Part shown: piece by piece, positions 12,503 to 14,185 of the stretch
How positions within the stretch are numbered: position 1 is the stretch's first letter
How the letters are laid out: every line of letters starts with the position of its first letter
Origin: a virus
Lineage: Duplodnaviria; Heunggongvirae; Uroviricota; Caudoviricetes
Strand: one strand, 5' to 3'
DNA length: 14,420 nt
Virus record (IMG/VR): IMGVR_UViG_2574180220_000003
The notes under the pieces: model-generated
What the model was told of the DNA's origin: nothing
What the model saw: only the letters and a program-made list of their open reading frames with translations
The model's database searches: none
Program-made: the position numbers and the translations under genes

Positions 12503-13086
12503 TGGCATTCAGAATGAGTGAACAAGCACGGACCATAAAAATTTATAATCTGCTGGCCGGAACTAATGAATTTATTGGTGAAGGTGACGCATATATTCCG
12601 CCTCATACAGGTCTGCCAGCAAACAGTACCGATATTGCACCACCAGATATTCCTGCTGGCTTTGTGGCTGTTTTCAACAGTGATGAGGCATCGTGGCATC
12701 TCGTTGAAGACCATCGGGGTAAAACGGTTTATGACGTAGCGTCAGGGGACGAGTTATTTATTTCTGAACTCGGTCCGTTACCGGAAAATGTTACCTGGTT
12801 ATCGCCGGAAGGGGAGTTTCAGAAGTGGAACGGCACAGCCTGGGTGAAGGATACGGAAGCAGAAAAACTGTTCCGGATCCGGGAGGCGGAAGAAACAAAA
12901 AACAACCTGATGCAGGTAGCCAGTGAGCATATTGCGCCGCTTCAGGATGCTGCAGATCTGGAAATTGCAACGGAGGAAGAAACCTCATTGCTGGAAGCCT
13001 GGAAAAAGTATCGGGTATTGCTGAACCGTGTTGATACATCAACTGCACCTGATATTGAGTGGCCTGTAAATCCTGTCAGGGAGTAA
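12502..13086 (+). CDS. tfa: Tail fibre assembly protein (Tfa)
   Basis: 194-aa [42 protein letters not shown] ... [26 protein letters not shown], matching the Tfa proteins of E. coli cryptic prophages (from memory). Classic stf-tfa overlap. Confidence 0.9.
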
Positions 13087-13136
13087 TCATTGGGATTATG
13101 CCGCAGCACGTCTTCAGCAAGAACGTGCTGCGGTTG
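12921..13136. repeat. Direct repeat copy 1 (tfa 3' end plus downstream hairpin), about 216 bp
   Basis: About 88-90% identical by eye to 13970-14185; covers the last 51 codons of tfa, the stop, and the hairpin. Confidence 0.8.
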
Positions 13137-13149
13137 GATGCTATTTTTT
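13101..13149 (+). terminator. Hairpin (11-bp perfect stem ccgcagcacgt/acgtgctgcgg, 11-nt loop) with a T-tract 3' of tfa; sits between convergent genes
   Basis: Read directly; T-run ctatttttt follows about 8 nt after the stem. A diverged copy occurs at about 14150-14185. Confidence 0.5.
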
Positions 13150-13809
13150 CCCTGAAGCGGAAAACATTACTACAGTACCTTGAACCTTGGTTTTAACATT
13201 CTCGAAATGCTCTGAGAGTATATGTGTTAAGCCTTCTTCGGAATCTTTTGTGTTTGAAAAGATGCCTTTCTGATTGTAAATGCGCATCAGTTTTTGACCG
13301 AAGCTATTGTGCACAACTCCATCGCCAAGAATTGTGGCTCCGTATAGAGTTCCATCGTCAGTTAAGGCCTGCGCCGCATTGCGTATTACACAGCTTTTTG
13401 TAGATATATTTCCAGGCAGGCAGTGAAGAAGGTAAAACATGGAAATGGAATCAAATTGACCATGTAACGCCGCGGGATAAGGTTCAAAAACATCATGGCT
13501 AATTTTATGTTTAATTTTTGATTCCCCAGCCCTTGTAGATGCCGCGTTCAGGCTAGCTTCGTTCAAATCCATTAAAGATATCAGACTACTCTCAGGTACG
13601 TGAGTAAGGTAAAACCCAGTTCCAACACCAATATCCAGATGGTTGTTACCTACATGTTCCAGAAAGTGTGGAAGAAGGTGTTCCTTTGTAGGACATCCCC
13701 ATGCAAGCCGATTTGATACTCCCAAAACCCACCAGTCATAAAGCTTTAGGGTAAGTGGTGTGTAAATTTTAGCCCCATCATCTGTGTTTTTTTTCATTGA
13801 TTTCACCAT
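13141..13809 (-). CDS. Class I SAM-dependent methyltransferase (Rossmann-fold), substrate unknown; likely true start at the internal ATG 13795-13797
   Basis: Motif I HLDIGVGTGFY (GxGxG), acidic LMDLNE after beta-2, and LTDDGTLYGATI. AT-rich relative to the flanking tfa sequences. SD-like GGTGAAA precedes the internal ATG (MKKNTDD...). Confidence 0.7.
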   Translation of the reverse strand: MVKSMKKNTDDGAKIYTPLTLKLYDWWVLGVSNRLAWGCPTKEHLLPHFLEHVGNNHLDIGVGTGFYLTHVPESSLISLMDLNEASLNAASTRAGESKIKHKISHDVFEPYPAALHGQFDSISMFYLLHCLPGNISTKSCVIRNAAQALTDDGTLYGATILGDGVVHNSFGQKLMRIYNQKGIFSNTKDSEEGLTHILSEHFENVKTKVQGTVVMFSASGKK

Positions 13810-13865
13810 GTTATAGTTTTATTTGTGAATTAAATCAATTATGGCGATGAATTACAAGGGGTTAA

Positions 13866-14135
13866 ATGCTGCCGCAGCATAGCGATATTGAAATAGCCTG
13901 GTATGCTTCGATACAGCAGGAGCCGAATGGCTGGAAGATCGTCACCACACAGTTCTACATCCAGGAATTCAGTGAGTATATTGCGCCACTGCAGGATGCT
14001 GTAGATCTGGAAATCGCAACGGAGGAAGAAAGATCGTTGCTGGAGGCATGGAATAAATATCGGGTATTGTTGAATCGTGTTGATACATCAACTGCACCTG
14101 ATATTGAGTGGCCTGCAAATCCTGTCAGGGAGTAA
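13866..14135 (+). CDS. Short chimeric Tfa-like protein (89 aa): unique 38-aa N-terminus fused to the conserved Tfa C-terminal 51 aa
   Basis: ATG at 13866 with SD AAGGGG about 5 nt upstream. C-terminus [51 protein letters not shown] is near-identical to the Tfa C-terminus. Confidence 0.55.
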
Positions 14136-14185
14136 TCATTGGGATTATGCCGCAGACACGTCGTATGCAGGAACGTGCTGCGGTT
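13970..14185. repeat. Direct repeat copy 2 (tfa-like 3' end plus downstream hairpin)
   Basis: Same orientation as copy 1; the hairpin arm is diverged (ccgcagacacgt...acgtgctgcgg). Confidence 0.8.

Follow-up and report, generated by a model that had tools for sequence, protein, structure and literature searches.

The window analyzed here, the whole 14,420-nucleotide stretch of the Caudoviricetes record IMGVR_UViG_2574180220_000003 in IMG/VR, ends in a segment in which ybcY, a gene for an S-adenosylmethionine (SAM)-dependent methyltransferase, lies between two copies of the 3' end of the tail fibre assembly gene tfa. We consider it probable that a degraded lambdoid prophage, integrated in ompW, has its right-hand cargo end here and that ybcY is a widespread moron. 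Morons of lambdoid phages, of which lom and bor are examples, are promoter-gene-terminator units, a concept of Juhala, Hendrix and colleagues. It should be noted that the locus itself is already known, being the long-annotated tfaD–ybcY–tfaX arrangement of lambda-like prophages of Escherichia coli. A first-pass annotation, made from the letters of the window, had described foreign cargo captured by recombination in the tfa 3' region, and this part stands, such recombination being the route of gain or loss, with at least three prophages found in which the site is empty; the capture is not an unexpected or open-ended one, as the same gene order is annotated in the DLP12 prophage of E. coli K-12. 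The same annotation had set against its own account the case in which the methyltransferase proves to be a conserved component of intact phages, and this is largely what was found. The ybcY segment (13141-13865) is present in 3836 of 5426 complete E. coli genomes (71%), in up to four places per genome and at ≥95% identity in all places, and viable lambdoid phages carry it as well. YbcY falls in a cluster that comprises 6589 identical protein sequences, and the window DNA is 100% identical to a RefSeq locus carrying WP_000240999.1.

Among lambdoid phage records, 15 contain ybcY, 14 of them at full length and at ≥98% identity; the carriers include 2G7b, ev243, PhiR26_1, PhiR29_1/2, PhiR30_1, PhiR49_1, PhiR68_2, Kati, Turner, and 204576, and one record labels the gene "putative uncharacterized protein YbcY." The DNA to the left of the gene is of three kinds. 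In PhiR26_1, as in the window, a lambda-type stf-tfa pair directly precedes ybcY; in 2G7b and ev243 there is a different fibre gene set, with a non-coding tfa remnant from window position 12966; in Turner, Kati, and PhiR68_2, pin and ynaE stand between tfa and ybcY, and the similarity to the window does not begin until the hairpin, at 13101. Bracketing by tfa repeats, which the first-pass annotation had described, is therefore not general, because in the last three phages the left edge is the hairpin alone. To the right, homology ends at 13895 in strain 536, at 14090 in most phages, and at 14112/3 in K-12 and PhiR68_2, and it extends beyond 14185 in the ompW prophages. The minimal shared unit, 13101-14090, thus comprises the hairpin, ybcY, a spacer, and the 5' part of tfaX. 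Because the left contexts in phages are of three different kinds, ybcY belongs to the cargo region that follows the tail fibres and not to a fibre module. In the intact phages, ybcY-tfaX is followed by genes for an α/β hydrolase of ∼494 residues (∼464 in 2G7b) and for OmpT, both on the minus strand, and then by int, a stretch that is a run of host-type cargo in the equivalent of the b region; the hydrolase-ompT run occupies locus positions 6956-9580 in PhiR26_1, and 6383-9007 and 6390-9014 in two further phage loci. Literature on ybcY consists of gene lists, a table from a study by SELEX (systematic evolution of ligands by exponential enrichment), and one negative knockout result, and nothing relevant was found on the PhiR phages or on tfaX and tfaD.

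Self-comparison of the window gave one long repeat only, the same-orientation pair listed in Table I as copies 1 and 2, which aligns over 216 columns with 19 mismatches and 1 gap (90.7% identity, E 6.5e-79) and encloses 834 bp. The first-pass estimate of same-orientation repeats of ∼216 bp and 88-90% identity, made by eye, was accurate, and its description of each copy as tfa 3' end, stop codon, and hairpin holds as well, except that the coding part amounts to ∼54 codons instead of 51, and the hairpin is GC-rich. By our own reading of the alignments, 9 of the 15 coding mismatches between the copies are synonymous, and therefore both evolved as coding sequence. Copy 2 is not uniform: from 13970 to 14090 its identity to copy 1 is ∼88% (14 mismatches in 121 nucleotides), in a part common to all ybcY cassettes, whereas from 14091 to 14154 it is ∼98% (1 mismatch in 64) up to the hairpin, the loop of which differs. 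Because identity shifts at 14090, copy 2 is composite, and a second crossover, in which the partner was a complete tfa 3' end, is indicated. The hairpin pattern GCCGCAG-N16-26-CTGCGG has two matches in the window, as compared with 0.01 expected by chance, and hairpin 2 together with the next 22 nucleotides (14149-14207) is 90% identical to the second hairpin in the b region of lambda, beyond ea47. In this region, cargo seems to be bounded repeatedly by the hairpin that follows tfa. The Rfam model RF02111 (IS009, a candidate small RNA) matches 12845-13043 inside tfa with 224.5 bits (gathering threshold 117) and 13889-14092 in the tfaX copy with 112.8 bits, just below the threshold; the two corresponding matches in K-12 are located in tfaD and tfaX. 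Because both matches lie in coding sequence on the sense strand, what the model describes is probably conserved coding sequence at the tfa 3' end rather than a gene for an RNA.

Sites without the cassette were sought with an artificial deleted junction, composed of copy 1 up to 13000 and copy 2 from 14050. This query was matched contiguously at 98.7-99.4% identity in at least three genomes (CP048934, CP043406, and CP086678), which have the same ompW prophage with the order stf-tfa-one hairpin-DUF4376 and no methyltransferase (locus positions 5903-6853). At the diagnostic bases, the tfa coding sequence is of the copy-1 type through 13026 and of the copy-2 type from 13106 in all three, with the exception that CP043406 has copy-2 bases at 12999 and 13005. 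The junction is thus a chimera of the two copies that changes over at ∼13027-13105, inside the repeat, and this pattern is what results when the repeats recombine homologously, or when that event runs exactly backward. CP043406 also has rha and ash genes ahead of attR. The repeats are thus scars of unequal recombination between tfa 3' ends and not a device for capture, and with two copies in place the cassette can now be inserted or deleted by homologous recombination. The conserved C-terminal domain of Tfa accounts for the similarity of tfa 3' DNA among phages, and because they encode this domain, tfa 3' ends are alike across phages and may serve as the joint.

The open reading frame (ORF) that contains the second repeat copy, tfaX, had been described as short, chimeric, and Tfa-like with a good ribosome-binding site, and the profile matches agree. 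Residues 32-86 of TfaX match positions 76-130 of the 131 positions of Caudo_TAP, corresponding to the C-terminal domain of Tfa, and residues 3-37 match PHROG 3893, an unrelated family of small phage ORFs, so that the product is a chimera of ∼35 N-terminal residues of the PHROG 3893 type and ∼55 C-terminal residues of Tfa. The N-terminal, fibre-binding part of Tfa is absent, and TfaX is consequently not a full tail fibre assembly protein. Small ORFs related to PHROG 3893 follow the fibre genes in Ayreon, in Klebsiella phages and, with weaker similarity, in HK225. The chimera junction, at ∼13969/13970, is common to all cassettes and is therefore old. In most phages the Tfa-like part ends after NRVDTS (window position 14090) and gives way to an unrelated sequence, as in PhiR26_1 (6467-6772 of the locus), Turner, and ev243, where the ORF encodes 101 residues and this sequence is hydrophobic (VALGMKLFVTHVTVTVITISKVQNVY), whereas in the window tfaX runs on to the full Tfa C terminus and hairpin. 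These features are consistent with an old illegitimate junction that would have fused codon ∼35 of a neighboring small ORF to tfa codon ∼141, generating tfaX, and with a later crossover near 14090 that may have made the tfa 3' end whole again, hairpin included.

YbcY has been shown to have the class I SAM-methyltransferase fold, as the first-pass annotation had proposed for the opposite-strand gene in the 0.8-kb insert. Residues 59-67, DIGVGTGFY, form motif I, in which DIGVGTG (residues 59-65) agrees with the glycine-rich loop consensus (E/D)xGxGxG, and Asp59, Gly61, Gly63, Thr64, and Gly65 are invariant across 37 homologues; an invariant acidic residue, Asp81, ends a predicted strand (residues 76-81) at the position of β2 that binds the ribose of SAM, and the seven-stranded α/β fold of the class is present. 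PHROG 2132, the YbcY family, matches residues 5-222 (E 4.2e-157). This profile and the homologues begin at the second methionine, Met5 (13797), which has GGTGA 5 nucleotides upstream, and the real product probably has 218 residues from 13797 instead of 222. The low GC content that had been noticed by eye is borne out, at 41.1% (35.9% at third codon positions) compared with 47.5% in tfa, 50.3% in stf, and 48.3% in the window. A homology and structure search, which had been proposed as a guide to the class of substrate, led to small-molecule methyltransferases but to no specific substrate: the neighbors in the fold search are enzymes of this type, for every one of the closest characterized structural relatives the substrate is a small molecule or a lipid, and sequence and profile searches of PDB gave only remote matches, to the SAM-binding core of JHAMT and UbiG. 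NCBIfam gave only sub-threshold matches, to CpaM, RquA, and PmtA; neither Pfam nor NCBIfam detected a DNA-methylase domain (N6_N4, Dam, or Dcm type) or a target-recognition region in YbcY; and the best match among the PADLOC defence models, mad2 (E 0.009, 12.9 bits), is not meaningful. Nine distinct E. coli-type ybcY alleles are intact and free of stop codons, and their ratio of nonsynonymous to synonymous polymorphism (pN/pS) of ∼0.3, from 5 synonymous and 5 nonsynonymous segregating sites with 148 and 518 available, respectively, is indicative of purifying selection.

The YbcY family is found in 527 places in GTDB species genomes (Enterobacterales, Pseudomonas, Xanthomonadales, Pasteurellaceae, and others), and ∼60 of its residues are invariant across genera. 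Homologues that are 51-75% identical are solitary chromosomal genes of other Gammaproteobacteria, with no adjacent tfa and no conserved neighbors, and those that are 79-90% identical occupy island-like spots beside dinI, insertion sequence elements, or perC. When the substrate was sought through gene neighborhood in 73 loci of other species, no neighbor was conserved beyond the genus; the recurring ones, an SDR, a crotonase-like protein, and CorA, were confined to Pseudomonas. Slots of a similar kind seem to be taken either by DinI or by YbcY. A Citrobacter freundii contig (5001-5996 of the locus) has a 90%-identical homologue that adjoins dinI and a CdiI immunity gene, not tfa, and in HK225 a reverse dinI stands in the equivalent slot, ahead of the PHROG 3893-like ORF.

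With respect to expression, genomic SELEX has shown that the K-12 ybcY/tfaX spacer is bound by the σ70 holoenzyme, with TTGATT-17-TATAAC assigned to ybcY, and that it has an H-NS site (PMC3946193). The same hexamers are present on the minus strand of the window, −35 at 13838..13833 and −10 at 13815..13810, and a promoter scan of the spacer gave a second, weak candidate; at the other end, hairpin 1 begins 7 nucleotides past the ybcY stop codon. Presence or absence among homologous phages and deviant GC, which are traits of morons, are both found here, in that the gene is absent from lambda and from the three empty-site prophages and has a GC content of 41%, versus 48%. The gene is a single one, opposite to the late-gene strand and in the slot of ea47 of lambda, with an AT-rich spacer that contains σ70 hexamers on one side of it and a strong hairpin on the other. 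In the explanation that we favor, ybcY would be autonomous: a lambdoid phage may have taken it from an accessory gene pool of enterobacteria, and in the lysogen it would be transcribed from a promoter of its own that H-NS represses; the product would methylate a small, probably hydrophobic metabolite and not DNA or the tail fibre.

Several observations weigh against this explanation. The −10 hexamer directly adjoins the first ATG (13809), and therefore translation would have to start at Met5, leaving hardly any leader, if transcription does not begin at a weaker promoter farther upstream. There is no canonical U-tract directly after hairpin 1 on either strand, and the scan did not call it; because a clean U-tract is missing, hairpin 1 can be regarded only as a putative terminator. 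The flanks of the empty sites are ∼3% diverged from the comparison locus, so that loss is not polarized against an ancestral lack of the cassette. The estimate of selection is drawn from 10 sites only, and, as the K-12 copy is a pseudogene and the prophage of the window is defective, ybcY may be dispensable.

Two other readings start from the fibre genes. The methyltransferase might be a working partner of the tail-fibre module, methylating Stf or Tfa, or else the receptor, so that lysogens are not re-adsorbed; most carriers have it immediately behind tfa, up to 3125 genomes contain the left junction of tfa 3' end and ybcY, and a Tfa-like ORF lies on its other side. We regard such a partnership as very improbable, given that ybcY is found with three unrelated left contexts (lambda-type stf-tfa, the fibre set of 2G7b and ev243, and tfa-pin-ynaE), is on the opposite strand with a putative promoter of its own, is missing beside the same tfa in lambda and in the empty-site prophages, and has homologues in other genera that are not beside phage genes. 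Duplicated tfa genes are typical of the invertible tail-fibre segments of Mu, P1, and e14, and Turner, Kati, and PhiR68_2 have a pin invertase between tfa and ybcY, so that the repeats might be regarded as remnants of a Pin/Gin-type invertible segment. They are almost certainly not, since they are direct rather than inverted and consist of 216 bp of coding homology rather than short crossover sites, and the window has no alternative fibre C terminus. A segment of the Mu G, P1 C, or e14 P type was rejected on the direct orientation of the repeats and the lack of an invertase in the window.

Other alternatives concern what the enzyme does, if anything. A DNA or RNA methyltransferase that shields phage nucleic acid or blocks other phages is quite improbable: the Pfam matches are to generic small-molecule families, with no DNA-methylase or target-recognition domain, the PADLOC and NCBIfam results cited above are at the level of E 0.009 and of sub-threshold matches, the prophage already has a separate N6_N4 DNA methylase (7476-8525), and the homologues are solitary, housekeeping-like genes without a partner. 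The first-pass annotation had mentioned anti-defence, RNA methylation, or a larger lost system as possible roles, and no supporting evidence was found for any of them, nor for a connection with the biology of the fibres. That ybcY and tfaX are decaying, functionless hitch-hikers kept by their position at the prophage end is a more serious proposal, but still an unlikely one. The K-12 gene is a pseudogene through a 2-nucleotide deletion, the prophage of the window has no genes for immunity, lysis, head, or tail, the fragmentary nature of tfaX and of the DUF4376 piece is clear, and deletion of ybcY had no phenotype in the one assay found in the literature; however, the ORF is intact in the cluster of 6589 identical sequences and in all nine sampled alleles, with the pN/pS given above, it is carried by plaque-forming phages, and ∼60 residues of its family are invariant across genera. 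In a specific version of the function that we favor, YbcY would act in lysogenic conversion: by methylating a hydrophobic small molecule, or a membrane lipid or quinone, it would alter the envelope or detoxify a compound, to the benefit of the host. This is a tentative and rather doubtful proposal, which, if true, would account for the retention of an intact ybcY in ∼70% of E. coli genomes, including prophages otherwise stripped of nearly everything.

The cargo end lies in a strongly reduced prophage that encodes an integrase, exonuclease, DUF968 protein, RusA, Q antiterminator, the DNA methylase, and two tRNAs, followed by a truncated SASA esterase, the 3' part of stf, and tfa (Table I). By reference to the fuller prophage of strain 300709, ∼7.7 kb with the immunity and replication genes is missing at window position 4675, and ∼6.9 kb of lysis and terminase DNA is missing between 10561 and 11095; the prophage is defective. 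The truncated DUF1737+SASA (SASA/NanS-like) esterase ORF (10320-11132) runs into the beginning of the stf 3' ORF, in which homology to stf of the related prophage begins at ∼11095, and the joint between them is the result of a deletion internal to the prophage. The tfa gene is 93.9% identical to lambda tfa at the DNA level. The ybcY/tfaX region is the right end of the ompW prophage, and in identical loci tfaX is followed by a DUF4376 pseudogene, an ompW fragment, and then yciE-trp. Other cargo in the window includes the DicF antisense RNA (4537-4588, minus strand), the small RNA STnc100 (9524-9713, plus strand), and an IraM-like anti-adaptor ORF (9739-10074, minus strand). The tRNAs, both on the plus strand, are one with a CAT anticodon (8575-8650), annotated as tRNA-Ile in a related genome, and tRNA-Arg(TCT) (8751-8827).

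Table I. Features of the tfa-ybcY-tfaX region, with positions in the window
Feature	Position	Strand	Basis
3' part of side tail fibre gene stf	11021..12502	+	Pfam Collar, Phage_fiber, gp37_C
tfa, tail fibre assembly protein, 194 aa, intact	12502..13086	+	Pfam Caudo_TAP, E 3e-44
Direct repeat copy 1: last ∼54 tfa codons, stop, hairpin 1	12921..13135	+	
Hairpin 1, between convergent tfa and ybcY; terminator-like boundary, left edge of the minimal phage-shared cassette	13100..13133	.	Fold −28.4 kcal/mol, z −3.6
ybcY-family class I SAM-dependent methyltransferase	13141..13809	-	ORF of 222 aa; Pfam Methyltransf_12/23/25/11
AT-rich divergent promoter spacer, ybcY/tfaX	13810..13865	.	Hexamers listed for the K-12 spacer in PMC3946193, read in the window
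tfaX-like chimeric ORF, 89 aa	13866..14135	+	AAGGGG Shine-Dalgarno; Caudo_TAP and PHROG 3893
Direct repeat copy 2, composite, ends with hairpin 2	13970..14185	+	
Remnant of DUF4376/tail-fibre-related gene, runs to the prophage right end (attR in ompW)	14139..14420	+	PHROG 7703 and 1141; RefSeq pseudogene in identical loci
Hairpin 2	14149..14183	.	Fold −24.2 kcal/mol

As a discovery the locus has little weight, the gene order being in the K-12 annotation and the protein a named RefSeq family. It nevertheless illustrates cleanly how conserved tfa 3' ends, together with the hairpin behind them, work as joints at which cargo is gained, lost, and reshuffled, with an empty site to serve as a control, and ybcY is among the most prevalent cargo genes of E. 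coli prophages and hence a reasonable target for a directed experiment.

The closest known system is the tfaD–ybcY–tfaX locus of DLP12 (b0561-b0563), which has the same genes, order, and strands, the same promoter hexamers, and 96.5% DNA identity over window positions 12648-14112. It differs in that ybcY is frameshifted by the deletion mentioned above but intact in the window, and in that tfaX diverges past 14112 and is followed by appY-ompT, whereas in the window the second tfa copy is complete with its hairpin and is followed by the DUF4376 remnant and attR in ompW. Like the promoter-gene-terminator units represented by lom and bor, ybcY is a single gene with a putative σ70 promoter of its own, a 3' hairpin, and a GC content below that of its neighbors; unlike them, it is not known to confer lysogenic conversion, and its hairpin is without a clear U-tract. 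Other solitary class I methyltransferases of enterobacteria, including STM1638 of Salmonella, belong to the same family of 218-224 residues and are 56-68% identical to YbcY, but they are chromosomal and not phage-linked as ybcY of the window is; in the literature STM1638 is mentioned only as a putative SAM methyltransferase adjoining rydC.

Mosaic exchange of tail-fibre genes at conserved tfa sequences was reportedly described by Haggård-Ljungquist and colleagues in 1992 and by Sandmeier in 1994, and North and colleagues are said to have described the conserved C-terminal domain of Tfa in 2019. As in such exchange, the joints in the present locus fall in the conserved tfa 3' end, but here a duplication brackets a gene that is not a fibre gene, as opposed to a swap of fibre specificity. 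In the b region of lambda (NC_001416), ea47 has the same position directly after the tfa hairpin and is on the same strand as ybcY, and because of this the reverse orientation of ybcY is normal for the region. The GCCGCAG…CTGCGG hairpin is present in lambda at ∼22572-22606 and ∼24161-24195 (3198-3232 and 4787-4821 of the locus), bracketing the reverse ea47. The cargo of lambda is thus unrelated to ybcY and its tfa is single, the hairpin being duplicated there with no duplication of tfa coding sequence.

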